Notes under the pieces: generated by a model | The model's database searches: none | Told to the model about the DNA's origin: nothing | Seen by the model: the letters and a program-made list of their open reading frames with translations, nothing else | Shown: positions 38,321 to 62,232 of the stretch, piece after piece | Layout: each line of letters opens with the position of its first letter | Numbering within the stretch: position 1 is the stretch's first letter | Translations under genes and position numbers: made by a program | From: Betaproteobacteria bacterium RIFCSPLOWO2_12_FULL_62_58 | Lineage (GTDB): Bacteria > Pseudomonadota > Gammaproteobacteria > Burkholderiales > SG8-41 | Direction: 5' to 3' | NCBI GenBank assembly: GCA_001772005.1 | Contig: MERI01000231.1 | Coordinates: 2,762 to 66,761, forward strand | DNA length: 64,000 nt

Positions 38321-38369
38321 CGGCGGGCCCGACGGCACCGGGGCCCACGGTAAGCCGCGCACCGCGATC

Positions 38370-46253: not shown

Positions 46254-47263
46254 TTGCTCACCCCTTCCGCATAAGGCCAGAATTCCGTGAGCGGATCGCC
46301 GCTCGCGTCCAGCATCGGCTGCTCGGCGGCCAAACGTTCTGCTTCCTCGATCCGCGCCCGCGCTGCCTTCACCATGCTGCGGTAATCGTCTTCCACCAAC
46401 AACCCGCGCTCCGACAGCATCCCCTTGAACCGCTGCACCGGGCAATTGCGCCGCGCGGCATCCTTTTCGGCCGCGGGCCGCAGTGCGTCGGCATCTTTCA
46501 CGGTCGAGCCGCCGAATCGATAGGTCTTGCATTCGATGAGCGTAGGGCCGCCGCCCGCCCGCGCCCGCTCGAGGGCATCGTCCACGGTTTGGTACACAGC
46601 AATCGCGTCATTGCCGTCCACCGTGATGCCCGGTATGCCGTAGCCTTCCGCCCGCCGCGACAGGTCTTTTACTCTCACTACGCTCGATATCGGTGTGGAG
46701 ACCGCGTAGCCGTTGTTCTCGATGATGATCACCAAGGGCAGATCCGCGAACGCGGCGAAGTTAACTCCCTCATGGAAATAACCGGTGTTTGTCGCGCCAT
46801 CGCCGAGCATGGTGACCACGACGTTTCCGGTTTTCAGATACTTTTGCGAGAGAGCAACACCGCCCGAGGTCACCAGGCCACTCCCCAGCATACCGGTCTG
46901 CGCGAGCACCCCTGCGTCGGGCACCGGACTGTGCCAGTGTGCCCAGCGGCCATTCGCGATGCCACCGGCGCGGTCGAAGAAGGTGGTCATCAAATCCCTG
47001 AGCGACGCACCACGACACAGGTAGACGCCCATACCGCGTATGGAGGGACAGATGAGATCCGAGGGCCGTATGGCGGCGCAAGTGCCCACGGCGATTGCTT
47101 CCTGCCCCAGGCTCAGGTGAAATTCACCCACCATGTGCACGCGCGCCTTCCACAGTTCCTCGCAGCGCGTTTCGAATTCACGCACGAGCACAAGCTGCTC
47201 CATCATCCTCCGCAGCGTCTCGCGCCCCGGTTCCTTGCCTGTGTTTGCAGCGTTCACCAGCAC
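46250..47263 (-). CDS. 2-oxoacid dehydrogenase E1 component, alpha subunit (TPP-binding)
   Basis: The TPP motif GDGATNTG...NNGYA. Notably YRFGGS stands where E1 alpha subunits normally have YR..GHS. Confidence 0.8.
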   Translation of the reverse strand: MLVNAANTGKEPGRETLRRMMEQLVLVREFETRCEELWKARVHMVGEFHLSLGQEAIAVGTCAAIRPSDLICPSIRGMGVYLCRGASLRDLMTTFFDRAGGIANGRWAHWHSPVPDAGVLAQTGMLGSGLVTSGGVALSQKYLKTGNVVVTMLGDGATNTGYFHEGVNFAAFADLPLVIIIENNGYAVSTPISSVVRVKDLSRRAEGYGIPGITVDGNDAIAVYQTVDDALERARAGGGPTLIECKTYRFGGSTVKDADALRPAAEKDAARRNCPVQRFKGMLSERGLLVEDDYRSMVKAARARIEEAERLAAEQPMLDASGDPLTEFWPYAEGVSK

Positions 47264-47329
47264 TCCTTGGTCATCGAATCAATCCAATGCCGGCGCGGAC
47301 CCCGTTGCCGGGCGATATACGCGCCATCG

Positions 47330-47497: not shown

Positions 47498-47643
47498 CTA
47501 CTTCATCACCATCTTGACGTCGTCCTTGATCGTGCCCAGCTCCTTGCCCAGCCACAACGCCTCGACCGCGTTCTTGCTCGCGGTCTGGATCGCCTCCATC
47601 GGGCTCATTTCGAGCTTCACGTAGATCTCAAGCTCGCGCGCGT
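47498..47643 (-). pseudogene. C-terminal fragment of an amidohydrolase paralog (internally deleted)
   Basis: The minus strand reads DARELEIYVKLEMSPMEAIQTASKNAVEALWLGKELGTIKDDVKMVMK*. It is collinear with residues near the C-termini of 27740..29101 and 54553..55887, minus about 25 codons. Confidence 0.65.
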
Positions 47644-48644
47644 CGAGCGGTTGAGAGCAAGCGGGAGACATCTCAATTGTACTTCACTTAACAAGACCCG
47701 CTTCGAAGAGCGCTCCTCTGAGCTGGATCTCGAGTTTCCCGAGGTAATACGCAGTATCCTTACTTCCGAGATAGTTGCTTACCCAGTGTTCCTTATCGAG
47801 ATTCCTACGCCATTCTTCAGTACGAACGAGTCTTCCAAAAGCGCTATCCCAGTAGGCGATCTGAACCGCAGTCATGTCTGGCGCTCCGAGGATAAATCTG
47901 GAAGCCGAGAAATCCATCTCTCCTCCCTGTTCTTTCCATGTCGGTACGTCGGCGAACTCTCCGGGAAGCCGTGCCTGTGACGTAATTCCAATCATTCTTA
48001 ACCGACCGGACTTTGACGCGCTCAACGCCGGCGCCGCCAGAATGATCCCGACATCGACGTGACCACCCATAATGGCCGTGGCAGCATGCGCGTTCGACTG
48101 AAAAACCACCGTCTTAAGCCTGCTCGCGTCGATCCCATTAGCTTTTGCCACAAGTGCCATGGCTAAATGAGCAGTCCCTCCACGCGCAGCACCGATTGCC
48201 AAACTTAACGATGTAGGATCCGCCCTGAGTCGTTGCAGCATATCGCGTCCGGACTTCAACGCCGAATCTGCATTAACGACTGCGACAAGATATTCATTGT
48301 AGAGCAGCGCCACCGCAGAAAACTCCGAATAGTGGAGCTTTGATCTGCCAATGATGTGGTTAGTCAAGACATTGATGGCGCCATTCAACAAATAATGGCC
48401 ATCGCCCCGAAATTGGCTCAAGTAGGTGAGACCGATCGTGGCTGCACCGCCTGGCTTGTTGACGAGAATGATCGGCGCGCCGACCATACCGTATTTCTGA
48501 AATATCTGTTGAACGATTCGGGCACTGGTGTCGTTCGCGCCGCCCGCTCCCGACGGAATAACGATTTCTACGTTGCGGTCCGGGCTCCAGCTAGCTTGCT
48601 GAGCCTCCGCAATTCCGAAAACCAACAGTCCAAGAACAAAGCAC
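47630..48644. repeat. ~1.0-kb diverged direct repeat, copy A (partner 49700..50719, offset 2075 nt)
   Basis: By-eye nucleotide alignment is collinear from ~55 nt downstream of the TctC stop through the signal-peptide codons, at roughly 80% identity. Confidence 0.7.
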
Positions 48645-48745
48645 GCAAGTGCCTCATAGCGGAGCGTTGCTGCATAACGAGCTAGCTTTCGTGTCGTACC
48701 CTTGCCTTGTGCGCCGGTAGCGGGCTTGATCATGGTCCGGCTCAT
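47684..48745 (-). CDS. TctC-type substrate-binding protein, duplicate copy 1, with a PrpD-derived N-terminal leader
   Basis: The mature part (SWSPDRNVEIVIPSGAGGAND...) is ~80% identical to 49747..50778. The N-terminus (GKGTTRKLARYAATLRYEAL) matches PrpD N-termini. ATG 48745 lies ~9 nt after GGGAGA; the ORF opens at 48793. Confidence 0.75.
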   Translation of the reverse strand: MSRTMIKPATGAQGKGTTRKLARYAATLRYEALACFVLGLLVFGIAEAQQASWSPDRNVEIVIPSGAGGANDTSARIVQQIFQKYGMVGAPIILVNKPGGAATIGLTYLSQFRGDGHYLLNGAINVLTNHIIGRSKLHYSEFSAVALLYNEYLVAVVNADSALKSGRDMLQRLRADPTSLSLAIGAARGGTAHLAMALVAKANGIDASRLKTVVFQSNAHAATAIMGGHVDVGIILAAPALSASKSGRLRMIGITSQARLPGEFADVPTWKEQGGEMDFSASRFILGAPDMTAVQIAYWDSAFGRLVRTEEWRRNLDKEHWVSNYLGSKDTAYYLGKLEIQLRGALFEAGLVK

Positions 48746-48767
48746 GCTATTCATTCTCCCGGATAAC

Positions 48768-49592
48768 CTACTTTGGATCCTTGCTGGCGCCATGTTTATC
48801 GACTTTACCTTCGAGCCAAGCAGTGGAACGCACGGCGCAATAGCGGACGATGTTCGGCCCGTCTACGGAGACACGGCTTGGCGCACCTTTCGGAATGTAA
48901 ATGATGTCTCCCGCATGAACCCGCTTGTCCTCCCCGGCGACGCGTGCGTCAAGGCCTCCTCTGAGGATATAGACAAACGTCTCATGTAATGCGCTCGTTT
49001 CTTCTTCAACCTCTCCTGGCAGCAGCTCGACAAATCCAAATGCCAGTCGTTCGCCGGAGACCCAGTGCTCGCGATGCCCTGAGGCGGGTGGGGCGTCAAG
49101 GGAATCGATTATTTCGTAGTAGCACTCGCCCAGCCCCTCGATGATGGCCTGCGATTTCTCCGGCTGTTTTTTCCCACCGGGCCATCTACCGGCGTCATGT
49201 GCTTGTGCGACTTCCTCTGGTGTAGGCGCAAGCTCCGGCGGTGCCTCGTCCGCGGCGATGCCTATCAGCGACCACGTGCGGTCCTTAATGTAAAGATAGT
49301 CCATCGGTCCATCCTCGGTCGCCCTCATGGAATGCCTGGCATTAGCCGGAACATGCACGAAAGTACCGGGAGATACAATTCGTCGGTCCTTTCCCACGAT
49401 AGCGTTAATCTTGCCGCGGAGTGGGAAAATCATCAGTTCGTTGGGATGGTAGTGCAACTCTGAACCTGTTCCTGTATTTTTATGTATTGTGCGGAAGTAC
49501 ATGTACCGACCTTCGATCGTTCTCCCTTCACCAGTTGACAAGTGGGGATTGAATCGCTCTATGTCGAGACCTTCAAAACGGTAAAAAGGCAT
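48768..49592 (-). CDS. Bicupin protein
   Basis: Two cupin barrels (LHYHPNELMIFPLRGKI...HVPANARH; second barrel ...ETFVYILRGGL...YIPKGAP). GAGGA SD. Confidence 0.7.
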   Translation of the reverse strand: MPFYRFEGLDIERFNPHLSTGEGRTIEGRYMYFRTIHKNTGTGSELHYHPNELMIFPLRGKINAIVGKDRRIVSPGTFVHVPANARHSMRATEDGPMDYLYIKDRTWSLIGIAADEAPPELAPTPEEVAQAHDAGRWPGGKKQPEKSQAIIEGLGECYYEIIDSLDAPPASGHREHWVSGERLAFGFVELLPGEVEEETSALHETFVYILRGGLDARVAGEDKRVHAGDIIYIPKGAPSRVSVDGPNIVRYCAVRSTAWLEGKVDKHGASKDPK

Positions 49593-49699
49593 GGCAGGTC
49601 CTCATCGGCTGGCTTCACAAAGGTGCACAGCGTCAGCCAACCTCCTTAAGATACGACAAAGCGGGTCGTTCTCGGCAGGGGACGATCGCGCAGTCATCA

Positions 49700-50719
49700 G
49701 CCTCGTACGCGTCAAACGGTTGAGCGCAACTAGGAGACGTTCTAATCTAATCGGCACTTCGTTTAACAAGCCCCGTATCAGAAAGTGCGCCTCTAAGCTG
49801 GATCTCGAGTCTCTGAAGGTAATGCGTAGTATCCCCACTTCCGAGATAGTTGCTTACCAAGCGTCCCTTATCGAGCGTCCTACGCCATTCTTCAGTATTA
49901 ACGAGGTTTGCAAAAGCGCCATCCCAGTAAGCAATTTGAGCTGCAGTCATCCCTGGAGCTCCCAAGATAAACCTGGAAGCCGAGAATTCCACATCTCCTC
50001 CCTGTTCTTTCCATGTCGGGATGTTGGCGAGGTCTCCGCTAAGCCGTACCCGTGATGTAATCCCAATGATTCTCAACTGCCCGGACTCCAGTCCGCTCAA
50101 CGCTGGTGCCGGCAGTATGAAGGCGCCATCGACGTGACCTCCCATGACGGCCGTGACAGATTCCGCGAACGATTTAAAACCCACCGTCCTGAACGTCCGC
50201 ACATCGATTCCGTTAGCTTTTGCCACCAGTGCCATAGCTAAATGGGCAGTCCCTCCGGGTGCGGCACCGATTGCCAGACTTAATGACGTCGGATCCGCCT
50301 TGAGCCGTCGCAGCATTTCGCGCCCGGACTTCAACGGTGAATCTGCCTTGACGACGGTGACAAGGTACTCATTATGTAGCAGTGCGACCGGAGAGAAGTC
50401 TGAATAGCGTAGCTTTGACCTGCCAATGATGTAGTTGGTCAAGACATTGATGGCGGCGTTCAACAGATAATGAGCATCGCCTCGAAACTGGCTCAAGTAG
50501 GTGAGGCCAATCGTGCCTGCACCTCCCGGCTTGTTCACCGCAACGATCGGCCTGCTGACGATACCGTGCTTCTGAAATATCTGCTGGACAATTCGCGCAG
50601 TGGTGTCATTGGCGCCTCCTGCTCCCGCCGGAATGACGATTTCTATGTTGCGGTCGGGACTCCAGCTAGCTTGCTGAGCTTCAGCAATTCCGAACGCCAA
50701 AAACACAAAGAGAAAGCAC
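49700..50719. repeat. ~1.0-kb diverged direct repeat, copy B
   Basis: See copy A. Landmarks AACAAG (47690 vs 49765) and AAAGCAC (48638 vs 50713) are both offset by 2075 nt. Confidence 0.7.
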
Positions 50720-50778
50720 ATAATGCGGCATGCGATTACTCTTTTCATACAGGGAACAAAGCAGGCTCTATCGAGCAT
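49747..50778 (-). CDS. TctC-type substrate-binding protein, duplicate copy 2
   Basis: Signal peptide (IMCFLFVFLAFGIAEA), then SWSPDRNIEIVIPAGAGGAND. An alternative start at 50748 is possible. Confidence 0.8.
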   Translation of the reverse strand: MLDRACFVPCMKRVIACRIMCFLFVFLAFGIAEAQQASWSPDRNIEIVIPAGAGGANDTTARIVQQIFQKHGIVSRPIVAVNKPGGAGTIGLTYLSQFRGDAHYLLNAAINVLTNYIIGRSKLRYSDFSPVALLHNEYLVTVVKADSPLKSGREMLRRLKADPTSLSLAIGAAPGGTAHLAMALVAKANGIDVRTFRTVGFKSFAESVTAVMGGHVDGAFILPAPALSGLESGQLRIIGITSRVRLSGDLANIPTWKEQGGDVEFSASRFILGAPGMTAAQIAYWDGAFANLVNTEEWRRTLDKGRLVSNYLGSGDTTHYLQRLEIQLRGALSDTGLVKRSAD

Positions 50779-51002
50779 AGTACCGTCTCCCCTCTAAAAG
50801 CCACCTCAAAAAAACCCTTCATATCTCTGTAATTTGATCAGCACTATTCCGTAAACCCGGTCGATCGCACGCTTGGGGAACGTAGCGATGACCAGCCATG
50901 TATTTTCATGGCAGTAATCCTACTAGCAAGATTGCGGAAAGCGAAAAAGGCTTTACAAAAGACATGGTGTTCTCCTACTGTGGTTCATTGTCAGCAAATG
51001 CA

Positions 51003-52040
51003 TTAGTCAACAGCGACCCCCGACTTCTTAACTACTTCAGCCCATTTAACGATTTCGGTTTTGATAAGAGTGGCGAACTCGTTGGGGGTGCTACTGAATG
51101 GTTCGGCGCCATCGCCGGCGAGGCGTTCCTTGATGTCGGGCATGTCAAGAATCGTCACAAACTCCACATTGAGTTTGGTGATTATGCCTCTGGGGAGGCC
51201 GGCTGGACCGACAACTCCATACCACGCTACAGCCTCGTACTCAGGCACGCCCGCTTCCGCTAACGTAGGCACGTGCGGAAGCGCCGTTAACCGCTTTGAA
51301 TCGGTCACGGCCAGCGGCCTCAGATTCGCAGACTTGATCTGGGACATCGCGACCGGCATGTTCGCGAAAACCAGTTGCACTCGTCCGCCTAGCAAGTCTG
51401 CAAGAGCCAGATTCGCCCCTCGATATGGAATGTGAACTATGTTGATGCCCGCCAGAGATTTGAATAACTCCCCGGCGAGATGGGGGGAGGTACCGACACC
51501 CCCGGAGCCAAAATTGAGTTGTCTGGGCCTGGATTTCGCAAGGGCGATCAGCTGCCTGACCGTTTTCGCCGGCGTCGATGGGTTTATCAGCAAAACGAGG
51601 GGTACCCTGGCCACCAGAGATATCGGTGCGAAATCTCTGGTTACGTCATAAGGCAACTTGCTGTGGATACTGGGATTGATGACGAAGCTGCTCGCCACGA
51701 GAAGAATCGTGTAGCCATCAGGGGCAGTTTTCGCGGCGATACCGGTACCGATGATGCTACCCCCTCCGGGCCGGTTATCGACCACCACCGATTGCTGCAC
51801 CTTTTCAGCAAGCTTCTGTCCGATAGCTCTCGCCAAAATATCCGAAGATCCACCCGGCGGGAAAGCGACGATGAAGCGAATCGGTTTATCAGGATATTTG
51901 CTCGCGTGAACCCCGATTGCCGCAACGACGGACCCTGCAACCACGAAGAACAAGGTAGCAAAGCGCAATACAAGATTCATGGCGCGCCTCCAAACAGATC
52001 GTGTCACACAAGCAGCGGAGAGGGCTCCTGCGTAAACCAA
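51003..52040 (-). CDS. Bug-family substrate-binding protein
   Basis: YPDKPIRFIVAFPPGGSSD. The probable start is MNLVLRF at 51980. Confidence 0.85.
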   Translation of the reverse strand: MVYAGALSAACVTRSVWRRAMNLVLRFATLFFVVAGSVVAAIGVHASKYPDKPIRFIVAFPPGGSSDILARAIGQKLAEKVQQSVVVDNRPGGGSIIGTGIAAKTAPDGYTILLVASSFVINPSIHSKLPYDVTRDFAPISLVARVPLVLLINPSTPAKTVRQLIALAKSRPRQLNFGSGGVGTSPHLAGELFKSLAGINIVHIPYRGANLALADLLGGRVQLVFANMPVAMSQIKSANLRPLAVTDSKRLTALPHVPTLAEAGVPEYEAVAWYGVVGPAGLPRGIITKLNVEFVTILDMPDIKERLAGDGAEPFSSTPNEFATLIKTEIVKWAEVVKKSGVAVD

Positions 52041-52073
52041 TTATCAACCCTTGAAACTACTTTTTCGTGCTCC

Positions 52074-53513
52074 TCAAGTATGAACAATGTCCATCAATCG
52101 AGAAATATCCTCGGCCCTTTCCAGGTTCTGAACAATGTCAATCGATTCATCGATTTTTTCTCGGGATAGAACCACCTCTGCGCAGCTACGATATTTTTCA
52201 AGGAGTTCGTCCCATGAAGGCGGGGTTGCGGGCTCCCACGGTCCTTTATCCACCCGGCACGTGTGCGCCACGCCATTCCGCAATTTGATCGTCACCATAC
52301 ACCCGAATGGAGCTGCCTCCGGGTTATAACCGAGCGCAGCCATATCTGGCGATACGACCATTTTCACCCTTCTCATCACGGCTAACGTTTTGGGTTCATT
52401 GACTCTGTCATCCGTAATTGCGGTGATGACGACTCGTCCCTCGAGAAGAGCAAGTGCTACACAAAACTCCAGACTGTACTTGGCTTCGAACTTATTCTTG
52501 GGTGAAGGATATTTAAGAAGATCAGCCACCGCTGGGGTCACACTGCACTCGACGGATTCGACATCGTCAGCCGAAAATGCGTGCTTCTGTTTTAGTTCTA
52601 ATACCCCTTGAATAGCATTGTGGGAGCGCGTGCAGGTCGGAAAACGTTTGAGCGTTATGCCCGGCGACTCGAACTCGTACGGGGCACCGAGGTGCTTGAG
52701 GATCTTGTCGCCGCCCGCGCCACCGCCAAAGGTTTGCAAGAAACCGTTCCTCGCTTCAAACACGTCGGTAGGCCCGGTAAACCCCATCTGGGCCAGCTTC
52801 GTCGCGACCACGCCGTTCTCTGCGCCCCTGCCGCCCCCATAGGCTTTGCTCATGGTGCCCATCGTCGCCCTCAGCCCGGACGCCTCCTGAGCCGCGATGC
52901 CTAAAGCATTAGCCATCTGACCCACATCCAAGCCCAGAAGCTTTCCGGATGCTGCGGTGGCACCGAAGGTGCCGAGTACCGCCAAAGGATGCCAACCTTT
53001 CTTCTGAAAGCCGGGTCTGATTGCGGCCGAAATCTTGTCCGAAATTTCTACGCCCAGGACGTGGGCCGTTATGAGGGCTTTCCCCGTCGACCGGCACTGT
53101 TCGCCGACAGCCCACATGGCTGCGCAAACGGGCACCGACGGATGGTGCATGTTAACGACGGAGATATCGCTGAATCCTATGACGTCGGCTGAGGTCCCAT
53201 TGATTAAGGCTGCATCTCGAACCGCGCTCTTGAAACCTTTTCCGATGACCGACGCGACGGGCGAACTTCCAGCTTCCTTGGCGAATCGGCAGAGAATGGA
53301 GGGGGCCTCTTCAACCGATCCCGCGAGAGTAATCCCTAGCGTGTCCAGAAATGAATTCTTGGCCAGGCGAACAACCTCAGCAGGAATATCTTCGTACCTC
53401 GTCCGCACAATGAACTCCGCCAACTTCGCCGTAACCGGAGCCTGCGGTTGTCTTGACTCCTCCAGATCCCCATCAGTCTTCATCGTTCCGTCCTCGGATC
53501 GAGGCATGGTCAA
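52074..53513 (-). CDS. MmgE/PrpD family protein (paralog 7)
   Basis: LAEFIVRTRYEDIPAEVVRLAKNSFLDTLGITLAG. Collinear with paralog 4. Start uncertain: TTG 53513, or ATG 53483 with a GAGGA SD. Confidence 0.85.
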   Translation of the reverse strand: MTMPRSEDGTMKTDGDLEESRQPQAPVTAKLAEFIVRTRYEDIPAEVVRLAKNSFLDTLGITLAGSVEEAPSILCRFAKEAGSSPVASVIGKGFKSAVRDAALINGTSADVIGFSDISVVNMHHPSVPVCAAMWAVGEQCRSTGKALITAHVLGVEISDKISAAIRPGFQKKGWHPLAVLGTFGATAASGKLLGLDVGQMANALGIAAQEASGLRATMGTMSKAYGGGRGAENGVVATKLAQMGFTGPTDVFEARNGFLQTFGGGAGGDKILKHLGAPYEFESPGITLKRFPTCTRSHNAIQGVLELKQKHAFSADDVESVECSVTPAVADLLKYPSPKNKFEAKYSLEFCVALALLEGRVVITAITDDRVNEPKTLAVMRRVKMVVSPDMAALGYNPEAAPFGCMVTIKLRNGVAHTCRVDKGPWEPATPPSWDELLEKYRSCAEVVLSREKIDESIDIVQNLERAEDISRLMDIVHT

Positions 53514-54493
53514 AGGCGAGATATCTGCCCGCCGATCGGCAATTTCACTCCGAGCCCTCGCTCTCTTGCTGCAAGCAACACCCTGGCAGCAACGAATAAA
53601 TCCTGAACGGCCATGCCATGGGACTCAAATAGCGTAATCTGCATCGGCGAGGTGCGCAGTGGCGCACGGCCGGCCACGGCGTCTTTCAGTTCAACAAGTG
53701 TCTCCCAGTGCAGATATCCACCCTCAACCAAGGGTAGGAGATCACCGCTCTCATTCTTTGCAATGTCTCTCGAATCCACCACCACGATATCGCACTTACG
53801 CACGGTGTCAGCGTCGATTTCCCGGCGAGTTAATGTATTTGATCCTACGGCGTTGATATGCTGACCGGCTTCCACCCATTCACCTCGAAACACCGGACTA
53901 GCCGCTCGCGTGATCGTCGTTACGATATCGCTACCACGTGCTGCAGCCTCGGCGGATTCCGCCGGGACGGCATCAATTTCGAGTTCCTCGCTCATCGATC
54001 GGCAGAAGTTCTGCAGTTTTTCCGAGTTACGGGAAAAGACTTTGGCTTTGCCGATGTTCCTGACCGCACAAAGAGCTTCTAGCTGCCCCCTTGCCTGCCA
54101 GCCGGCGCCAAACAGGCCAACCTGCGCTGATTCTTCTCGCGACAAATAACGCGTGGCGAGACCGCTCGCTGCCCCAGTGCGCATCATCCCCAAGAAGTCT
54201 GCCTCGATGATCGCGGACAGAGCGCCACTCGCGGTGTCGTAAAGATAAACATGGCGGTGCCGCGCGGTATCGCTAAGCTTCGGCGCGTAATAGGCTTTGT
54301 ATCCCACTACTCCCAGCTCAGGCGCGGCGCCTTGCAAAATATTAAGGTTGCCTGTGGGAAGTCGTGTCCTCTGCCGCGGCATATCAACGGCTTTCGCCGC
54401 AGCGAGAGATTTCATCGCGTGTTCCACTGCTTCCAACGCCACGCCCATCGTGAGCACCTGGCGAACATCGGCCTCGGTCAAGTAATACGCCAT
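53510..54493 (-). CDS. Ornithine cyclodeaminase / mu-crystallin family protein
   Basis: The N-terminal LTEADVRQVL.. layout, the Rossmann motif GLFGAGWQARGQLEAL, and a length of about 325 aa. Confidence 0.75.
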   Translation of the reverse strand: MAYYLTEADVRQVLTMGVALEAVEHAMKSLAAAKAVDMPRQRTRLPTGNLNILQGAAPELGVVGYKAYYAPKLSDTARHRHVYLYDTASGALSAIIEADFLGMMRTGAASGLATRYLSREESAQVGLFGAGWQARGQLEALCAVRNIGKAKVFSRNSEKLQNFCRSMSEELEIDAVPAESAEAAARGSDIVTTITRAASPVFRGEWVEAGQHINAVGSNTLTRREIDADTVRKCDIVVVDSRDIAKNESGDLLPLVEGGYLHWETLVELKDAVAGRAPLRTSPMQITLFESHGMAVQDLFVAARVLLAARERGLGVKLPIGGQISRL

Positions 54494-54552
54494 GACCGCC
54501 TAACGTCAGCGAAGATCAAACCTGCACCGACTAATTGCCATTGGCCCGCGCA

Positions 54553-55887
54553 CTAAAGGTTATCGATGATTTTCCAGGATCCTGGCTCGGGATGCATGAC
54601 ATACTTCTTTTCGTTAGAAATCTTGTCAACAAAAATGCTTCCCTCTTTCATGACCATCTTGATGTTGTCCCGTTGCTGAAGCACCTTGATGTCGCGGGAC
54701 GGGTCGCCCTCTACTGCGACAATGTCGGCCAGCTTCCCTGGCTCCAATGTCCCGAGATCCTTGCCGAGACCAAGCGCCTCGGCGGCGTTCTTTGTGGCCG
54801 TCTGAATTGCTTCCATCGGGCTCATGCCGAGTTTCACATAAATCTCTAGTTCTCCAGCGTTGCTGCCCATTTCCGGGTCCAGCCCGATGTCTGTTCCCAT
54901 CGCCATCTTCACACCGGCCTGATGGAATTTCTTGAAAGATTCGAATGTATAGGGCTGGATCTTCTTCATTTTGGTCAAGACATTCTGCGGTGTGCCGATC
55001 CGGCGTCTAACTTCAATGGCGTGGTCCGTCCTGTGGGAAAGTGTGGGGATCACTGGAATCCCGGCGTCTTTTATCATCGCGATCGTTTCATCGTCGGTAA
55101 ATACGATATGCTCGATCGTGTCGACACCAGCTTTGACGCACATGCGGTGAGACTGCGTAGTAAAGCAATGCGCCGCCACCGGTTTGTGAAACGCATGGGC
55201 TTCGTCGACGATTGCATCCAGCTCCTCTTGGGTCATGTTCCTCACATCGGGCTCTTCGTCGGCAGTCCCGCCGCCGCCGGATACACTAGTCTTGATGAGA
55301 TCCGCCCCGGTTCTCAGTTGTTCCCGCGCTAGCCGACGCAATTCCCATGGCCCGTCCGCGACCATGTCCGGCTGACGTAAGGCCGCGCGCGGCAATACGA
55401 GATCAAGATGGGAGTTCGTTATTATTGCCCTCCCGCAGACGATCAATCTGGGTCCAGGGACAATGCCGGCATTGATCGCGTCCCGAACGGCACAAAACTC
55501 CGCGGTAAATTGGCCACGGGGCGTCACTCTCCCCAAATCTCTTACAGTCGTGAAGCCCATCTCGAACAACATGTGAGCGTGGAAAAGCACATAAAAAGAT
55601 TCCAGTTGGGGGGTTACTTCGAATATCGCAACCCGGTAATTATTGAACGTCGCGGCGTTGTAGGCCGCGAGATGGGCGTGGCAGTCGAACATACCGGGCA
55701 TGAGGGTGTATTTGCGGGCATTGATAACTTTCGCGCCGCGCGGCGCTTTGATTTGTCCCGCAATACCCACAGCTTTGATTCTCTTGCCCTCAACAACGAT
55801 CGTCGGGTTCCTGGTGACAGCGCCACCGTTTCCGTCGATCAGTCTGCCACCGTTGATTACGCTTAGTTTCTTATCAACATTAGACAT
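54553..55887 (-). CDS. Amidohydrolase-superfamily metallohydrolase, copy 2
   Basis: Collinear paralog of 27740..29101 (GMFDCHAHL; GKLADIVAVEGDP). GGAGA SD. Confidence 0.8.
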   Translation of the reverse strand: MSNVDKKLSVINGGRLIDGNGGAVTRNPTIVVEGKRIKAVGIAGQIKAPRGAKVINARKYTLMPGMFDCHAHLAAYNAATFNNYRVAIFEVTPQLESFYVLFHAHMLFEMGFTTVRDLGRVTPRGQFTAEFCAVRDAINAGIVPGPRLIVCGRAIITNSHLDLVLPRAALRQPDMVADGPWELRRLAREQLRTGADLIKTSVSGGGGTADEEPDVRNMTQEELDAIVDEAHAFHKPVAAHCFTTQSHRMCVKAGVDTIEHIVFTDDETIAMIKDAGIPVIPTLSHRTDHAIEVRRRIGTPQNVLTKMKKIQPYTFESFKKFHQAGVKMAMGTDIGLDPEMGSNAGELEIYVKLGMSPMEAIQTATKNAAEALGLGKDLGTLEPGKLADIVAVEGDPSRDIKVLQQRDNIKMVMKEGSIFVDKISNEKKYVMHPEPGSWKIIDNL

Positions 55888-55982
55888 TCATGTGTCTCCG
55901 CATGTCGTTAAACAATTTGACCCTGTTGTTCCTGAGCGTCCGGTATATGCCTAGACTTCTCACCGCGGAAACGCCCGCGGCA

Positions 55983-57044
55983 TTAATTGTTCGTCAGCTT
56001 GAGCGCTTTCACCACTTTGGTCCATCTTTCGGTCTCGGACTTGATATAAGCAGCAAACTCCTCGGGGCTGCTGCTCGGCGCGGGTTCGATGCCCTGCTTC
56101 AACAGCATTTCGCGGACGTCTGGAAGGTTGAGGACCGTCACGGTTGCCCGGTACAAGCGCTCTATGATCGGGCGCGGTGTGCGAGCCGGCGCAAGCATCC
56201 CGTACCAATTGGTCGCTTCATACCCCTTAATCCCTGCTTCTGCTACGGTAGGCACGTCTGGCAACACTCCCGCGCGCTTCGCTCCGGCAACCGCGAGCGC
56301 GCGCGCCTTGCCGGCCTTCACCTGCGGCAAGATGGTCGATATCATGCCAACCAGCATCTCGAGTTGCCCTGAAACGACAGCGGTAATTCCTAACGTGCCG
56401 CCTTTGTACGGCACGTGCACTATGTTCACCCTGGCCATTGTGGTGAACAGCTCCCCTGCGAGGTGCCCTGGACCGCCGACGCCCGCGGACGCGTAATTGA
56501 GCGCTCCGGGGCGCGACCTGGCAAGCGCGACCAGCTCCTTGATCGAGTGAACAGGAAGTGACGGATGGATGACGAAAACGATCTGTAGTGCAACAGCGTT
56601 GCTGATCGGCGCGAAGTCCTTGATCGGGTCGTATGGGACTTTGCGGATCAATGGAGAGATCACCTCCGCGCCAAATGTGCCAAGATGAATAGTGTAACCG
56701 TCTGGGGCAGATCTCGCGGCGAGCTCGGCGCCAATAACGCCCGCCGCACCAGGACGGTTGTCCACGATGAATCGCTGCTTGAATGCTTCATCGTACTTTG
56801 ACGCAAGCAGCCGCGCGACAATATCCGTGCCGCCTCCTGGTGGGAAACCGATGATGATGGTTACTGGCCTGCTCGGGTAGTCCTGTGCGAATACTTTGGA
56901 CGCACTCAAAATGGCGAATAGCGAGACTACGAAACCGACTGCCAAGGCCGCGCGAACGACGAGTTGAGGGAATGGTCGACATTCGGGGGCTGCAAATAGA
57001 TTCCTCATGCTCTTCTCCTTGCCCTCTGGGGCAACCCCTATCAC
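55983..57044 (-). CDS. Bug-family substrate-binding protein
   Basis: YPSRPVTIIIGFPPGGGTD. The probable start is MRNLFAAP at 57008. Confidence 0.85.
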   Translation of the reverse strand: MIGVAPEGKEKSMRNLFAAPECRPFPQLVVRAALAVGFVVSLFAILSASKVFAQDYPSRPVTIIIGFPPGGGTDIVARLLASKYDEAFKQRFIVDNRPGAAGVIGAELAARSAPDGYTIHLGTFGAEVISPLIRKVPYDPIKDFAPISNAVALQIVFVIHPSLPVHSIKELVALARSRPGALNYASAGVGGPGHLAGELFTTMARVNIVHVPYKGGTLGITAVVSGQLEMLVGMISTILPQVKAGKARALAVAGAKRAGVLPDVPTVAEAGIKGYEATNWYGMLAPARTPRPIIERLYRATVTVLNLPDVREMLLKQGIEPAPSSSPEEFAAYIKSETERWTKVVKALKLTNN

Positions 57045-57093
57045 ACCCTGGACTTCAACATTGACGAAATCCGCACCAACGGGAGATTGGGGC

Positions 57094-58539
57094 CTAGCTA
57101 TTGCATCTCAGATGTTCCGTGCTTCCCATGGTTAACGGCGAGTCGGAATCCCAGGCGTGTCTTTTGGTCAGCCCCGCACTATGTTCCCGCTGCGCCTCGG
57201 CGGTGGCCCGAGTAAGTTTCGCAATGGCGTCCAGGCGCTGGATCGAGCGCGCAAGACCCAGCAACCGGCGTGCGCCAGCGTCTGTCAAGGCGCGGCGTAC
57301 ACAATCCAGGAATTTTTCTTCATGCTCGGCCGGCGGCATGGGCGAAGCCGGCGAGCCTGGGGTTTTGGTGACGCGCGTAGAAAACACGCCGCGGCGGGTC
57401 GAAATTTCGACATCGTTGTAGCCAACAACTCCGGAATACATCCTCGCATCGGCGATGTGATAGCGCTCGACGCGACGCATCATTTCTCGCAGGACGAGAC
57501 GCTGCACCATTGCGTCCGTGAAAGTTTCGAGACCTAGTCTGCGATCGAGCACTATGGCTGCTGCGACATACTCGATGCTGAACTTTCCCTCGAGTCCGGT
57601 TTGCGGATTGGTATGTATGAGCGGCTCGTCAGTTCCCGGCGGAAACCCCACCCTGATTTTCTCAATCTCTTCTGAAGCGATCGAATGCGCTCGCAGTAAG
57701 TCGAGCAGACCTCCTACCGCACGATGGGTACAGTAACAGCACGGCCAACGCTTATAGCTGATCCCTGGCACCACCGCCTCCCACGGATTGCCGAGGTTAT
57801 TCAGCGTTGAGCTGAGTGAAGGGCCATCCGCGTGGTACATGTCAATGAAGCTGTGCTTTCCATCAAGAATCGCGGGATCGGCGGTAAAACCAGATCGGGC
57901 GAGCGTGGCCGCATGCACAGCGCAACGCGCTGCATGCCCCACCTGCAAAGGCTTGGTCATCGTGCCGAGGTTACGAACAAGCCCTGCGGCCTGCGATGCG
58001 GCTACCCCCCACGCATGACACAGCTCCCGCACACTCATACGCCACAACCGAGCCGCAACAGCCGTCGAAGAAAAAATCCCGACGGTCGCTGTACTATGCC
58101 ATCCGTGCAGATAATGGCTATCGCCCAGCGCTCTCCCGAGTTTACCCGCCACTTCAAGACCTAGCGCATACGCGGTCAATACCTCACGCCCGGAAGCCGC
58201 CGTCGTTTCCCCGACAGCCAACGCGACCGGCATCATCGTTGCGCTCGGATGGCCACGCAGACCGGCCATTGTGTCGTCAAAGTCAAGCGCGTGGCTTGCA
58301 ATGCCGTTTATAAATGCGGCATCCGCTGCCGACGTGAACAGATCCCGCCCCCACACGGTGGCCTTCGACCCGGTTTGCAGTTCTTGAACGCACCGCAGTG
58401 CAATGTCCACCACTGGCTCCCGCGTCCCCGCAAGCCCGACACCAAGCGTATCGATCAGCGCAATCTGAGCGCTCTCCAGGACCGGGGCCGGAATCTCCCC
58501 GGCCTCAACGACAAAGCGCCCCAGACGTTCAGTCTGCAT
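57094..58539 (-). CDS. MmgE/PrpD family protein (paralog 8)
   Basis: From ATG 58539: LGRFVVEAGEIPAPVLESAQIALIDTLGVGLAG. Closest in layout to paralog 3. One nt separates it from the upstream stop. Confidence 0.85.
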   Translation of the reverse strand: MQTERLGRFVVEAGEIPAPVLESAQIALIDTLGVGLAGTREPVVDIALRCVQELQTGSKATVWGRDLFTSAADAAFINGIASHALDFDDTMAGLRGHPSATMMPVALAVGETTAASGREVLTAYALGLEVAGKLGRALGDSHYLHGWHSTATVGIFSSTAVAARLWRMSVRELCHAWGVAASQAAGLVRNLGTMTKPLQVGHAARCAVHAATLARSGFTADPAILDGKHSFIDMYHADGPSLSSTLNNLGNPWEAVVPGISYKRWPCCYCTHRAVGGLLDLLRAHSIASEEIEKIRVGFPPGTDEPLIHTNPQTGLEGKFSIEYVAAAIVLDRRLGLETFTDAMVQRLVLREMMRRVERYHIADARMYSGVVGYNDVEISTRRGVFSTRVTKTPGSPASPMPPAEHEEKFLDCVRRALTDAGARRLLGLARSIQRLDAIAKLTRATAEAQREHSAGLTKRHAWDSDSPLTMGSTEHLRCNS

Positions 58540-58540
58540 A

Positions 58541-59596
58541 TCAGTCTGCACGCGCCCCGGACGCTCGCACCACGGCCGACCATTTGGTGATCTGTAATTT
58601 GATATACGCGCCAAACCTTTCCGGCGTGGTAATAAAAGGCTCAGCGCCCGTTTTTGATAACTGCTCCCTGACATCCGCCATATTCAATATCCTGTTGATC
58701 TCCTGGTTCAGCCGTGTCGTAACGGCGGTCGGGGTGCCGACAGACGTGACCACACCGAACCAGCCGTCCGCTTCATAGCCAGGCAATCCAGATTCCGAGA
58801 CCGTGGGCACATCCGGCAGAAATCGGGATCGCTTAACGCAAGTCACCGCAAGGACGCGTACTTTCCCGCTTTTTATCAATGGCATCGCTGGTGGTAGATT
58901 GACGAACATCAAGGGAACCTGACCGCTCATCACGTCAACAAGAGCAGGGGTGGTGCCCTTATATGGAACATGCACGATGTCAATACCCGACATCGTCTTG
59001 AATAATTCACCTGATAAATGAATACCGGTTCCCGTACCGCCCGATGCAAAATTCAACGCCCCCGGCCGAGATTTGGCCAACCTGATCACATCTTTCACCG
59101 ATTTCGCCGGGACAGACGGGTGTGCAACAAGCACATTACAAACGTTGATCAGCGAGGCGACCGGGGTGAAATCTTTTACCGGGTCATAAGGCAGATGACG
59201 ATATAAGCTTGGATTGATGGCATAAGCTGTCGAGATTAAGAGGATCGTGTATCCGTCTGGTGCAGTTCTCGCCGCCAGTTCGCTGCCAATACGGCCAGCC
59301 GCCCCCGGCCTGTTGTCGACTACGATCTGCTGACGAAGACCCTCAACTAATTTTTGAGCGACGATCCTGGCGGGAATGTCGCTTGCTCCACCCGCTGGCC
59401 CCGCTACGATGAAACGAATCGGCTTATTCGGGTATTCGCTGCCGAGAGTCAATCCAGAAAGACAGAGCGGAACTACCAGCACGAAGAACGACTGCTTCAC
59501 GTGGAAACGTCTTCGATCGACGGCCCCGATTGGCCGCCGTCTTCGAGAGCGTGCGGCGCCCCGCCTCAGGGGTAACCGGCTGAACAAGAAGCGCAT
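58541..59596 (-). CDS. Bug-family substrate-binding protein
   Basis: YPNKPIRFIVAGPAGGASD. A GTG at 59500 gives a normal signal peptide (VKQSFFVLVVPLCLSGLTLG), so the ATG 59596 start is probably too long. Confidence 0.85.
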   Translation of the reverse strand: MRFLFSRLPLRRGAARSRRRRPIGAVDRRRFHVKQSFFVLVVPLCLSGLTLGSEYPNKPIRFIVAGPAGGASDIPARIVAQKLVEGLRQQIVVDNRPGAAGRIGSELAARTAPDGYTILLISTAYAINPSLYRHLPYDPVKDFTPVASLINVCNVLVAHPSVPAKSVKDVIRLAKSRPGALNFASGGTGTGIHLSGELFKTMSGIDIVHVPYKGTTPALVDVMSGQVPLMFVNLPPAMPLIKSGKVRVLAVTCVKRSRFLPDVPTVSESGLPGYEADGWFGVVTSVGTPTAVTTRLNQEINRILNMADVREQLSKTGAEPFITTPERFGAYIKLQITKWSAVVRASGARAD

Positions 59597-59615
59597 TGCC
59601 GTACTTTTGATGGTG

Positions 59616-60716
59616 TCAAGCCGTATGAGCGGCCTTCTCAGCCTTAAGTCGTGGTGAGGTAAGTTTTATTCCAAGAATCTCGCGCGCTTCGTCCGGTGTG
59701 GCTATTTCCCTTCCTAATTCTCTAGCGATCGTGGCGACTTTTCGCACCATATCGGCATTTCTTTGTATGACGTCGTCCTTGTGCGGATACACCCAATAAC
59801 AATCTTCAGCTCCCACTCTCACGATCTGCGCGCCGAGCATTATTCCCAATACAGTTATCGGCAGCCAATTCCGTCCGCCGACGTAGACCCCCATCACGCT
59901 GTCTGGAATTGTTTCTTTAACCATGTAGAAACTCGTGATAAGTTGCAGCGCTCCCCAGGGATCCTTGTGTATGGTGTATGAATCATGTTTCCCCATGTGC
60001 AGATTTAGGATGTAAGGTTTCATCCTGGAGAGGCCGGGATCTATCAGAATATCCTTCAAGCGCATCAACGAAATCGGATTGTAGAGTTGGTAGACAGGTT
60101 TAACATTGTGTTCTTCGAGAAACGGAATCCCCTCGATGAGGGATTTTTCACTAATGTGGAAATCCCCCGGCTCGTATCTGCCCCATCCAACAAGCACAAC
60201 ACTTCCCTGGCAGTACTTGTTGCCATTACCCATCTCAAGTAATTTTTTTGTTTTCTTTATCCAGTCAACCTCCGCGCCGAAACGATCGAACGTGTCTTGC
60301 ATAGTGACCATGTCGACCTTCTCGTAGACGCGGTCGAAAATTTCTGCGTTTAGCTTCGGGTCATATGCTTTTTCCGTCCGGAAACCCCGCTCCGGATCTA
60401 TCGCATGGTGGTGAATTGCAGCGGCGCCTTCCTTCACCGAGTCGACAATCGTATCTACCTGTTCTTCCACCGTGCACGGAATGGCCGGATATCTTATTCC
60501 TCCCTCTTTGTAGCCGGGGGGCTCGAACGGATAAATTTCCCGAGGTCCCCAGAATCGGACAGATGGCCCAGTAGTTGCGCACTCAATAATGAGTTTTTTA
60601 TCCATCGTCGGGATTCGAGGCTCGAGGTCGATTGGAAATCTTTTCAGCCGAATCCTGATGTACTCTTCAAGCGATTTCGCCCAATCTTTGACAGGCGCTT
60701 TGTATTCCATAACCAC
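59616..60716 (-). CDS. BKACE / DUF849 family (3-keto-5-aminohexanoate cleavage enzyme-like) protein with N-terminal extension
   Basis: LIIECATTG, the AAIHHHAIDP metal motif and VRVGAEDCYW match the BKACE TIM-barrel signature. About 38 extra N-terminal residues. Lowest GC in the window. Confidence 0.7.
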   Translation of the reverse strand: MVMEYKAPVKDWAKSLEEYIRIRLKRFPIDLEPRIPTMDKKLIIECATTGPSVRFWGPREIYPFEPPGYKEGGIRYPAIPCTVEEQVDTIVDSVKEGAAAIHHHAIDPERGFRTEKAYDPKLNAEIFDRVYEKVDMVTMQDTFDRFGAEVDWIKKTKKLLEMGNGNKYCQGSVVLVGWGRYEPGDFHISEKSLIEGIPFLEEHNVKPVYQLYNPISLMRLKDILIDPGLSRMKPYILNLHMGKHDSYTIHKDPWGALQLITSFYMVKETIPDSVMGVYVGGRNWLPITVLGIMLGAQIVRVGAEDCYWVYPHKDDVIQRNADMVRKVATIARELGREIATPDEAREILGIKLTSPRLKAEKAAHTA

Positions 60717-61039
60717 ACCTCCTTGACCAGGTTAACTCTGCGCTTGATCCCAAAACGAAGTATCGCAATCCTTGATCGACACGGCAAGATTAGTTTTCCG
60801 CTCTGCGGAAATTTTATGGATCCTATTTTTTCCCTAGTTTTTGCCCTAATTACACAGGCTTATGACAGGTTAGCTTCTGAAGCTGTTCCTCGCTACGACT
60901 TATCTGTTTTCTCGACCAGGAGTAGACGCGCGTTCGTGAAGCCCTGCAGCCGAGTCGAGGATTACAATGTCTTATCGGCAAAAAAATGAGATTCTGTCTT
61001 CAATATACGCAGAACGACATCAAGAGCGCGGATCAACTA

Positions 61040-61056
61040 ATTGCAGAGCTTGCAAT
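61040..61056. promoter_or_regulatory. Inverted repeat ATTGCA-gagct-TGCAAT upstream of the probable IclR-2 start
   Basis: A 6-5-6 palindrome 45-95 nt upstream of the candidate ATGs. It shares the TTGCA core with the repeats at 29184..29236. Confidence 0.3.
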
Positions 61057-61943
61057 CGTCGACCCATTTGAATAGATTCGGATTCAGCATCGCCCGCGAC
61101 ATGACCCGGACAACGCAGGGAAAGAACCAGCTTGTCACACCCCGGCAAAATATGCCCAAGACGCGGCGAAAATCTGGCGGCACACGAAGCATTGAACGCA
61201 CGGTCCAGCTGCTGCGAGAAATAGCGAGATTCGGCAGGCGTGGCGCAAGGCTGTCCGACCTTGTCATGGCAACCCAGCTTGGATACGCGACGGCCCATCG
61301 CATCTTGAAATGCCTTGTCGATCAGGAGCTAGCCGAAAAAGATCTGCGAACACGACGCTATTCGCTGGGTCAACTAATCTACGAACTGGGTCTTGGTGCC
61401 ACACCGAAAGTAAACCTGCGCGAGATATGTGAGCCGATCGTTTCATGCATCGCGGAGCGAACCGGCGATACCGTCTTTCTCCATGTTCGCAGCGGCCTAG
61501 ACGTCCTTTGCATCGACCGCAAGGAAGGAATGTCGCCGATCAAGACCCATGTCTTTGACATCGGAAGCCGTCGGCCTCTCGGGGTAGGAGCCGGAGGAAT
61601 TGCGCTGTTGGCCGCCCTGCCTCAAGACGAGGTTGAGGAAATTGTGAACACAATCGCACCTCGCCTCTTACCGTGGCGCGTAACACCAAAAAGGGTGTTG
61701 ATAATGGTCGCACGCGCGAAACGAGACGGTTATGTAGCTACAGAAGGTGCCGTAGTGAAATGGGTGAATGCTGTAAGTGTTCCGTTTGGGGGGCAGAACG
61801 GATTGCCGCAGGCTACAATCACCATTGCCACGATTCCTCCCCGTCTTCCTAGCTCGAGGCAGCACGAATTGGTGGCCATGTTACGCGCGGGAATACGGGA
61901 AATCGAAAGACTCGCGAAGGAATTTTCGTCCCCTGGGCGGTGA
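61041..61943 (+). CDS. IclR-family transcriptional regulator
   Basis: wHTH (SIERTVQLLREIARFGRRGARLSDLVMATQLGYATAHRILKCL) plus an effector domain. The likely start is ATG 61152 (MPKTRRKSGG) or 61101. Confidence 0.85.
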   Translation: MQSLQSSTHLNRFGFSIARDMTRTTQGKNQLVTPRQNMPKTRRKSGGTRSIERTVQLLREIARFGRRGARLSDLVMATQLGYATAHRILKCLVDQELAEKDLRTRRYSLGQLIYELGLGATPKVNLREICEPIVSCIAERTGDTVFLHVRSGLDVLCIDRKEGMSPIKTHVFDIGSRRPLGVGAGGIALLAALPQDEVEEIVNTIAPRLLPWRVTPKRVLIMVARAKRDGYVATEGAVVKWVNAVSVPFGGQNGLPQATITIATIPPRLPSSRQHELVAMLRAGIREIERLAKEFSSPGR

Positions 61944-62232
61944 GTGGACATCGACGGCACGCATGACGGTCACCCACAGTCTGCACACGCTGCGGTTCCG
62001 GCACGAGTCTTGAGCCAGCCGCAATCCCCGGCAGAAATCCACACAGTTTGACCGCGCCGAGAGAGAGTAGGAGCGTTACCCGGATAAAGTTTGCTCCGCG
62101 CGCCCGTCGCCTATCCCCGCAGCAAGACTGCGGGGGTATTACGGCGACGAAAAACAAAATCACGGCGCGCTTCGCTAACGTCAACAACAAAAAACATGCA
62201 GTTCCCGCGTGCCAAGAGCACGGGGAATAGCG

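Follow-up and report, generated by a model that had tools for sequence, protein, structure and literature searches.

Do eight neighbouring genes that are read in the same direction also serve the same pathway? This question is raised by positions 51003-60716 of a stretch of 64,000 nucleotides (nt) from contig MERI01000231.1 of Betaproteobacteria bacterium RIFCSPLOWO2_12_FULL_62_58; the whole stretch is called the window below. The original prediction, made from the sequence alone, read this array as a candidate route for an amino- or imino-acid-derived β-keto acid, with an acetyl-CoA-condensing BKACE enzyme as its last member. Our analysis does not support such a single β-keto-acid pathway, because the protein of the DUF849 (BKACE) family lacks the family's catalytic glutamate and the array looks like a patchwork of separate cassettes. 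Instead we favour, with a probability of roughly 0.55, the reading that the array is a probably co-transcribed, lineage-specific mosaic of uptake-linked cassettes rather than one dedicated pathway, and that it includes a non-BKACE DUF849 enzyme.

All eight open reading frames (ORFs) lie on the minus strand and score far above the Pfam gathering thresholds, and the predicted co-directional gene set and its family assignments therefore stand. Counted from the side of the IclR regulator gene, the order is DUF849/BKACE, TctC_a, PrpD_a, TctC_b, amidohydrolase, OCD (ornithine cyclodeaminase family), PrpD_b and TctC_c:

61041..61943, plus strand: IclR-family regulator, divergent from the array (Pfam IclR_C 56 bits, HTH_IclR 25.7 bits)
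60711..61040, no strand: divergent control region, 330 nt, AT-rich, within the lowest-GC bin of the window
59616..60710, minus strand: DUF849/BKACE-fold zinc enzyme (P0001) with Gln208 (Pfam BKACE 115.9 bits)
58541..59596, minus strand: TctC_a binding protein (Pfam TctC 236.5 bits)
57094..58539, minus strand: PrpD_a, MmgE/PrpD protein resembling iminodisuccinate (IDS) epimerase (Pfam N domain 206 bits, C domain 89 bits)
55983..57044, minus strand: TctC_b binding protein (Pfam TctC 231.9 bits)
54553..55887, minus strand: COG1228 carboxypeptidase-type amidohydrolase, cytoplasmic (Pfam Amidohydro_1 154.7 bits)
53510..54493, minus strand: OCD/mu-crystallin-family NAD(P) enzyme (Pfam OCD_Mu_crystall 180.6 bits)
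52074..53513, minus strand: PrpD_b, MmgE/PrpD protein (Pfam 199 and 120 bits)
51003..52040, minus strand: TctC_c binding protein (Pfam TctC 256.6 bits)

Conserved partners of the array genes

Outside the window, the full array was found only in the same population, represented by an independent assembly (locus L053) that is 99.86 % identical over 45880-56937 and has its genes intact. A further locus, L001 (~93 %), has four genes only; it matches 57371-61949 with 92-93 % identity, its four genes share 91-96 % protein identity with those of the window (91 % for IclR), and the two sequences diverge past IclR. Together, L053 and L001 confirm the gene order. Apart from these, we saw no shared arrangement in any of 29 distinct DUF849 loci, in 15 loci of the amidohydrolase, in three of OCD relatives or in 400 genomes searched for PrpD_b. 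The component genes have different conserved partners, and these results count against a single amino- or imino-acid-derived route.

The DUF849 loci (30 entries, L018 being the same as L046) came from the window, a contig scan (27 loci) and an exact protein look-up. A tblastn comparison of all window proteins with these loci revealed TctC only, with the exception of L001 and L003-L006. In L001, IclR, TctC_a and PrpD_a lie beside the DUF849 gene, and this locus (~93 % identical) is the only one of the 29 with a neighbouring PrpD gene. L003-L006 represent one lineage, in which two OCD-family genes (26-35 % identity) adjoin a DUF849 gene of 55 % identity. An amidohydrolase gene next to the DUF849 gene was found in none of the 29. 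A synteny search for co-occurring OCD, amidohydrolase and BKACE genes had been proposed as a check of the β-keto-acid route, and its outcome is thus negative: no DUF849 locus has the amidohydrolase, and L003-L006 alone have an OCD gene.

We then clustered, without bias towards the window proteins, all neighbours within 6 kb of the DUF849 gene. The most frequent were TctC (8 loci), NMT1-type binding proteins (6), MFS transporters (5), ABC permeases (5), IclR regulators (5 entries, 4 distinct loci), σ54 activators (4), other binding proteins (3 + 3) and subunits of 2-oxoacid oxidoreductases of the thiamine pyrophosphate (TPP)/POR type (3). TctC genes whose products are 40-47 % identical to TctC_a adjoin DUF849 genes in L007, L013, L014, L022 and L027. 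The predicted divergent IclR gene is indeed present, and an IclR gene also flanks the DUF849-subfamily gene in L001, L046, L048 and L050. In L048/L013 and in L014, TctABC, two short-chain dehydrogenases/reductases (SDRs) and a GMC oxidoreductase accompany the DUF849 gene together with an E1 alpha/beta pair, the gene order being shuffled. This survey indicates that the conserved unit consists of a regulator, a transporter or binding protein and the DUF849 enzyme, sometimes together with a TPP-dependent 2-oxoacid enzyme. L002 (Logan SRR31012007) offers another example of "binding protein + DUF849" cassettes in series: of its three tandem DUF849-subfamily genes, two have an NMT1-type binding-protein gene in front of them, and two genes of the Amidohydro_2 type, one for a Peptidase_M24 and one for NicX are located upstream.

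Close homologues of the DUF849 protein are few (96, 74, 71, 74 and 69 % identity, then at most 57 %). Only one of 40 relatives has a close orthologue (G010, 73 %, apparently the same place as L007), the other matches not exceeding 37 %. None of the eight same-genus genomes has an orthologue, and three of the eight show only distant matches (at most 37 %). The subfamily as such is spread across Proteobacteria, Desulfobaccales, Nitrospirota, Chloroflexota and haloarchaea.

The amidohydrolase keeps different company. Of 401 genomes of the order, 22 have an orthologue with 54-63 % identity, and paralogues are encoded at 27740-29101 (73 %) and, with 62 % identity, also in its own contig and genome. 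We examined 15 loci, 13 from other genomes and two further copies in its own genome. The recurrent neighbours were TctC, a small cupin that is 46-54 % identical to one of the window's cupins, sometimes an SDR and, in one case, a bicupin; in none of the 15 did we detect a relative of OCD or PrpD next to the amidohydrolase, which answers the proposed synteny question from this side as well. In L074, L077, L079, L080, L081 and L084, a COG1228 amidohydrolase gene is followed by a cupin gene (matched over ~100 amino acids, aa) and then by one or two TctC genes. This amidohydrolase-cupin-TctC module, sometimes with an SDR or a bicupin, is kept across several families of the order. The protein itself matches the Arg carboxypeptidase Cc2672 (3mtw) with 213.9 bits, has ochratoxinase among its matches, stays below the NCBIfam cut-off for XaaProDiPepCaul (329.9 versus 500) and shows no visible signal peptide.

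The OCD-type protein belongs to a very large group of 319-aa proteins that are 53-60 % identical, and the three relatives checked were all located in unrelated contexts. Its best structural matches are a Pyr2C reductase (6t3e, 174.5 bits) and an archaeal alanine dehydrogenase (135 bits); it did not reach the cut-off of any NCBIfam model (best PRK08618, 218.6 versus 417).

Both PrpD proteins have IDS epimerase (2hp3) as their first-ranked structure in the Protein Data Bank, with 345.6 bits for PrpD_a (residues 3-415) and 206 bits for PrpD_b, and neither reaches a 2-methylcitrate dehydratase equivalog (best 48.7 and 36.2 bits versus cut-offs of 458-950). The known MmgE/PrpD substrates all contain a succinate substructure (PMC12290011), and both PrpDs would likewise act on a substructure of this type. 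A paralogue of PrpD_a (54 %), encoded at 18305-19657, directly follows a gene of the γ-glutamyltransferase family (GGT), the GGT-PrpD pair spanning 18305-21511. In L001, the order is GGT (59 % homologue, within 1-1800), IclR, DUF849, TctC and PrpD_a, which suggests that an IclR-DUF849-TctC unit may have been inserted between GGT and PrpD_a. For PrpD_b, no orthologue with more than 56 % identity was found in the 400 genomes; its best relatives (51-56 %) are encoded at 33602-35008 of the window (56 %), on contig C222 of the same genome (51 %) and in G098 (56 %). The paralogues in the same genome sit with cupin and TctC sets, and in G098 an amidohydrolase gene is divergent from IclR-TctC-PrpD.

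These patterns have to be seen against the background of the source genome, a metagenome-assembled genome of 5.9 Mb in 277 contigs. It contains 61 PrpD_N matches (~55 of them full length), at least 150 TctC proteins (488 first-look candidates), 16 TctA matches and two BKACE matches, and within the window alone PrpD similarity is seen in nine stretches, full genes and fragments taken together. Since TctC and PrpD are hugely expanded, their juxtaposition with any enzyme is to be expected here and unremarkable.

The spacing of the genes depends in part on the start codons chosen. For the DUF849 gene, ATG 60710, which is preceded by the Shine-Dalgarno sequence AAGGAGG, is more likely than GTG 60716. 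PrpD_a starts at ATG 58539, 1 nt beyond the TctC_a stop codon; the longer ORF 57094-58674 was ruled out as the PrpD_a gene. TctC_a probably truly starts near 59500 (GTG, 319 aa), following the gene call in L001, and PrpD_b starts at 53513 or 53507, resulting in a 4-nt overlap with the OCD gene or a spacing of 2 nt, respectively. Accordingly, the gaps range from ~1 to 115 nt across the array. A consensus scan detected neither an intrinsic-terminator-like site in the coding-strand gaps between the array genes nor a σ70-like site in 60711-61040; its counts did not exceed those in shuffled sequence and were uninformative. Because the gaps are short and no terminator-like site was seen on the coding strand, we infer that the array is probably co-transcribed from the IclR-controlled region. 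Directly past the stop codon of TctC_b, whose N-terminus resembles a signal peptide, lies a perfect 6-bp GC hairpin (CCGCGG-N6-CCGCGG, 55963-55980); it has no T-run and may therefore be an mRNA-stabilising or processing element rather than a terminator.

How such a mosaic could have arisen and function may be pictured as follows. Separately conserved cassettes of a periplasmic binding protein and a cytoplasmic enzyme would have been joined in an accessory segment of lower GC content. In the first cassette (IclR divergent from DUF849-TctC_a), a binding protein of the tripartite tricarboxylate transporter (TTT) type would capture a carboxylate, which the zinc-dependent DUF849 enzyme would convert by a decarboxylation, a hydration/hydrolysis or a lyase step without CoA. 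The product may be a 2-oxo acid that is passed to the E1 alpha/beta pair encoded at 45.3-47.3 kb. The second cassette (PrpD_a and TctC_b) would provide an isomerase or dehydratase resembling IDS epimerase that acts on a succinate-type substructure, and the paralogue of this PrpD is paired with the GGT-family gene. In the third (amidohydrolase, TctC and a cupin or bicupin), an amino acid might be released from an N-acyl or peptidyl substrate; the OCD-PrpD_b pair would have been recruited into this amidohydrolase set, the OCD enzyme presumably catalysing NAD(P)-dependent redox reactions of imines or amino acids. The substrates of the mosaic are best read as substituted dicarboxylates or N-acyl amino acids.

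Four observations weigh against this reading. Intact, co-directional genes with gaps of ~1-115 nt are also what a single functional operon looks like. The DUF849 gene beside two OCD genes in L003-L006 hints at a real link between DUF849 and imino-acid chemistry, and the divergent arrangement in G098 may mean that amidohydrolase and PrpD_b-like enzymes cooperate. Finally, the glutamine at the catalytic position, or a subfamily-specific Glu43 (see below), might support BKACE-like chemistry.

The first three of these observations would fit a modified form of the earlier idea, in which a single operon under IclR control would encode one route for an amino-dicarboxylate that is N-substituted or N-acylated, for example an N-substituted aspartate or an aminopolycarboxylate. 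TctC proteins would import the substrate, the amidohydrolase would deacylate it, and the OCD enzyme would carry out redox chemistry on an imine or secondary amine, before the two PrpDs epimerise or dehydrate the succinyl part and the DUF849 enzyme performs the final C-C cleavage or decarboxylation. Besides the packing of the genes, the tight coupling of OCD and PrpD_b and the lack of a terminator-like site, this scheme draws on family-level chemistry: IDS epimerase, to which PrpD_a is so similar, acts on an N-substituted aspartate, the PrpD substrates share the succinate substructure noted above (PMC12290011), and the OCD family has enzymes for imino acids and secondary-amine acids (BhcD, SbnB and Pyr2C reductase models). 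Packing and such chemistry make up the entire case for a single pathway, together with the two neighbourhood links just mentioned. Against it, the full set is kept in the same population only, the conserved partners differ from component to component, an insertion into a GGT-PrpD pair is suggested by L001, the paralogue load makes chance juxtaposition likely, and no C-N lyase was seen among the genes scanned at 47.6-63.4 kb. We therefore regard a single route as possible but doubtful.

The active site of the DUF849 protein

The mosaic reading treats the DUF849 protein as an enzyme other than a BKACE, although it clearly has the fold of this family. The match to the BKACE Pfam model (PF05853), against a gathering threshold of 24.8 bits, covers residues 76-350 and model positions 18-274. 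An AlphaFold2 model based on 53 homologues reached a mean pLDDT (predicted local distance difference test) of 90.2, and its top 28 Foldseek matches were all DUF849 structures (E-values 1e-16 to 1e-13). The structures matched include Kce (2y7d), 3c6c, BKACE15 (8rip) and 5zmu, with target-normalised TM-scores of 0.76-0.88 at 19-23 % identity; for Kce and 3c6c specifically, the scores were 0.80-0.88 at no more than 23 % identity.

The active site was mapped by sequence alignments, while the AlphaFold2 model supports the overall fold only. In a profile alignment to Kce (chain numbering of 2y7d = native + 6), H100 and H102 correspond to His46 and His48, E302 to Glu230, D303 to Asp231 and R298 to Arg226. 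All three zinc ligands (H100, H102 and E302) are invariant, and 47 of the 53 subfamily members have R298. The catalytic glutamate, Kce Glu143, is aligned with Gln208, both in a HMMER alignment to 2y7d and in a separate MAFFT alignment with canonical BKACEs of related genomes, which have "FEIECYD" where the window protein has "PVYQLYN". Among the 53 members, this column holds Q in 37, K in 11, E in 3, and L and A in one each. The residue pair R254/E171 of BKACE15 equals R226/E143 of Kce and R298/Q208 of the window protein, the position of E171 following from the constant offset of 28 (R254/R226). E171 is the catalytic base of BKACE15: the exchange E171L abolishes activity, and E171D keeps 5 % (PMC11961710). 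DUF849 proteins without a catalytic residue make up group G7, which the NetSyn preprint (10.1101/2023.02.15.528638) describes as "non-BKACE" and without keto-acid activity.

The surroundings of the gene point the same way as this replacement. No gene for an acetoacetate CoA-transferase, a thiolase or another protein handling acetoacetate or acyl-CoA was present among the genes scanned at 47.6-63.4 kb. Moreover, the NCBIfam equivalogs of the BKACE family were not reached, the scores being 42-77 bits overall against cut-offs of 350-725 (Kce 76.7, 3-oxoadipate 56.5 and 3,5-dioxohexanoate 72.2 bits versus 382, 350 and 430). The acetyl-CoA-dependent condensation originally proposed for this protein is thus not supported by its sequence. 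With a glutamine in place of the base, and the metal site and the arginine kept, the enzyme would most likely perform CoA-independent zinc chemistry on an imported carboxylate.

Could the protein nevertheless be a working BKACE that condenses acetyl-CoA with a β-keto acid by means of another general base? A candidate for this role would be Glu43 at the end of strand β1, which is present in 51 of the 53 subfamily members and missing from the canonical BKACEs aligned. The fold, both histidines, Glu302, Asp303 and Arg298 are conserved, and the residual activity of BKACE15 E171D indicates that the base position tolerates some change (PMC11961710). But glutamine is unable to act as a base, the leucine exchange in BKACE15 leaves no activity (PMC11961710), and proteins of the G7 type were inactive on every keto acid tested (10.1101/2023.02.15.528638). 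Given also the low identity to solved BKACEs, the low equivalog scores and the missing CoA-related genes, we consider a functional BKACE improbable.

The N-terminal extension that had been highlighted is real in comparison with the Pfam model, which matches from residue 76 onwards, but it is not special to the window protein. It forms a helix of ~35 aa; F25, P26, I33 and T35 did not vary in any of 13 sequences, Afipia and Desulfobaccales included, and helix and residues are kept from Burkholderiales to Afipia, Desulfobaccales and Actinobacteria. Its status as a peculiarity of the window protein was therefore rejected in favour of a trait of the whole subfamily. An 18-aa insertion after strand β1 (residues ~48-65) is restricted to the closest clade. 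Further motifs of the subfamily are GKH, DPW, GGRNW and EDCYW.YPH.

Two side observations concern related proteins. The only other BKACE match in the genome (C152:9183-9500, L034) extends only over model positions 10-116, in an open frame of 284 aa, and may be a truncated or divergent copy. In addition, there is a second non-canonical DUF849 subfamily (L038-L041, from the relatives G021, G015, G020 and G004), with a serine at the catalytic-glutamate position in frames of 346-412 aa. It has an N-terminal extension of its own (KWDQV.KW...) and has the C-terminal "EDT.WPYPHRD..I" in common with the subfamily of the window protein.

Composition and surroundings of the array

The lowest GC content had been placed at the DUF849 gene, and the 1-kb bin 60001-61000 is indeed the lowest among 64 bins (0.478). 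The segment at ~47.6-63.4 kb as a whole has a GC content of 0.55, versus 0.61-0.63 for the flanks of this segment and for most of the window, and its GC content at third codon positions is 0.54-0.67 versus 0.72-0.78. Further along the same strand lie two gene groups:

47684..50778, minus strand: divergent TctC, bicupin (48768-49592) and divergent TctC, the probable downstream continuation of the array (Pfam TctC 72, Cupin_2 85 and TctC 72 bits)
45258..47263, minus strand: E1 alpha/beta pair of a TPP-dependent 2-oxoacid dehydrogenase (Pfam E1_dh 232.7, Transket_pyr 116.9 bits)

A bicupin that is 48 % identical to the one in the window was found in L084, within an amidohydrolase-SDR-TctC-TctC-cupin cluster, and PrpD-cupin-TctC sets recur at 33.6-37.4 kb of the window and in L071. 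The E1 pair, an orphan 12 kb downstream of the DUF849 gene, shares 60-63 % identity with the E1 alpha/beta pairs next to DUF849 genes in L013/L048 (11016-13080) and L014 (4493-6459), which suggests it as a possible functional partner of the DUF849 enzyme. No homologues of the SDR and GMC proteins of those clusters were found in the window.

Gene fragments sit between the downstream TctC/bicupin/TctC set and the E1 pair. The whole array might be evolutionary debris, in which paralogues that arose by recent duplication or transfer have piled up in a decaying accessory region and now have hardly any physiological function, if any. We consider this very improbable: nearby fragments (the tail of an amidohydrolase gene at 47495-47644 and pieces of PrpD at 37549-38373 and 41689-42192) and the GC content below that of the flanks are opposed by eight ORFs and five downstream genes of the same strand that are full length with conserved motifs, by the intact copy in L053 and by the four well-conserved genes of L001.

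Related gene sets were observed at two further places. A paralogous cluster of lower GC content at 25757-37451 comprises a CoA-transferase III, an SDR and the amidohydrolase of 73 % identity, divergent from IclR (52 %), TctC and a TPP enzyme, and continues with a flavin reductase, a PrpD (56 % to PrpD_b), a cupin, a TctC and another cupin; it has a partial counterpart in G098 (L070). A third amidohydrolase paralogue (62 %) is encoded on the minus strand at C231:67277-68593, ~0.5 kb past the right end of the window (L086 5278-6594). Next to it on the same strand follow a divergent TctC, cut by the right end of the window, and a signal-less TctC at 62462-63370. This set adjoins the IclR gene and looks like a further copy of the amidohydrolase + TctC module.

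Significance and likeness to known systems

As a gene cluster, the array is ordinary; uncharacterised catabolic arrays associated with Bug/TctC are numerous in a genome of the Burkholderiales type. The β-keto-acid route should stay out of the annotation of this one. The most useful lead is the uncharacterised DUF849 subfamily. Its genes consistently accompany those of transporters or binding proteins, and often an IclR gene as well, which makes the subfamily a tractable target for enzyme discovery, as the ligand of the binding protein should reveal the substrate. Going further, one may speculate that the Gln/Lys subfamily represents an undescribed CoA-independent zinc lyase, decarboxylase or hydrolase for transporter-delivered organic acids, whose product feeds TPP-dependent 2-oxoacid enzymes, and that it is wired here with PrpDs, an OCD-type dehydrogenase and an amidohydrolase for natural aminopolycarboxylates or opine-like N-substituted aspartates; in this full form we think the idea unlikely. 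The ~55 MmgE/PrpD paralogues, many of them beside TctC, offer a natural panel for extending what is still a very short list of reactions known from the PrpD family.

Compared to BKACEs such as Kce of Cloacimonas acidaminovorans and BKACE15 of Paracoccus denitrificans, the window protein has the DUF849 TIM barrel, the zinc ligands, the Asp and the Arg in common. It differs by Gln208, the extra N-terminal helix, the 18-aa insertion, its own motifs and an identity of only 19-23 %, as well as by the lack of neighbouring genes for handling acetoacetate or CoA. Like the G7 "non-BKACE" proteins (Bastard et al. 2014, via the NetSyn preprint, 10.1101/2023.02.15.528638), it misses at least one catalytic residue, and the likeness to G7 is defined by this criterion alone. 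The preprint presents G7 as a heterogeneous group without assigned function, mainly in the context of quinone oxidoreductase, taurine dioxygenase, MFS transporter and serine hydrolase genes, whereas the context here consists of IclR, of transporters or binding proteins and, in some loci, of TPP-dependent enzymes.

A precedent for the proposed chemistry is CESH[D] of Bordetella sp. BK-52 (5zmu, Foldseek E ~1e-15), which hydrolyses cis-epoxysuccinate and binds its metal by two His and Glu14 at the end of β1 (PMC6429283). It combines a DUF849 fold with CoA-independent, non-BKACE chemistry on a C4-dicarboxylate, demonstrating that this fold already hosts such reactions. Glu14 of CESH[D] and Glu43 of the window protein are both acidic residues at the end of β1. 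CESH[D] lacks the Kce-type third ligand, which is kept in the window protein, and the identity is ~21 %.

Both PrpDs are much nearer to IDS epimerase of Agrobacterium tumefaciens BY6 (345.6 bits over 413 residues for PrpD_a) than to 2-methylcitrate dehydratase. The known IDS route includes a C-N lyase, and no gene for such an enzyme was seen among those scanned at 47.6-63.4 kb. Considering the ~55 PrpD paralogues, substrate specificity has surely diverged. The amidohydrolase shows full-length similarity (145-214 bits) and the Amidohydro_1 fold in common with the COG1228 enzymes Cc2672 Arg carboxypeptidase (3mtw), Xaa-Pro dipeptidase (2qs8) and ochratoxinase (4c5y), but is partnered by a small cupin and TctC, not by peptide-transport genes. 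An orphan Bug/TTT binding protein beside a catabolic enzyme is an arrangement of Bordetella, Cupriavidus and their relatives. The source genome resembles them in that many TctC genes lack adjacent TctAB and each lies beside an enzyme gene, with 16 TctA versus at least 150 TctC, and it differs from them by its unusually large expansion of PrpD (~55 copies).

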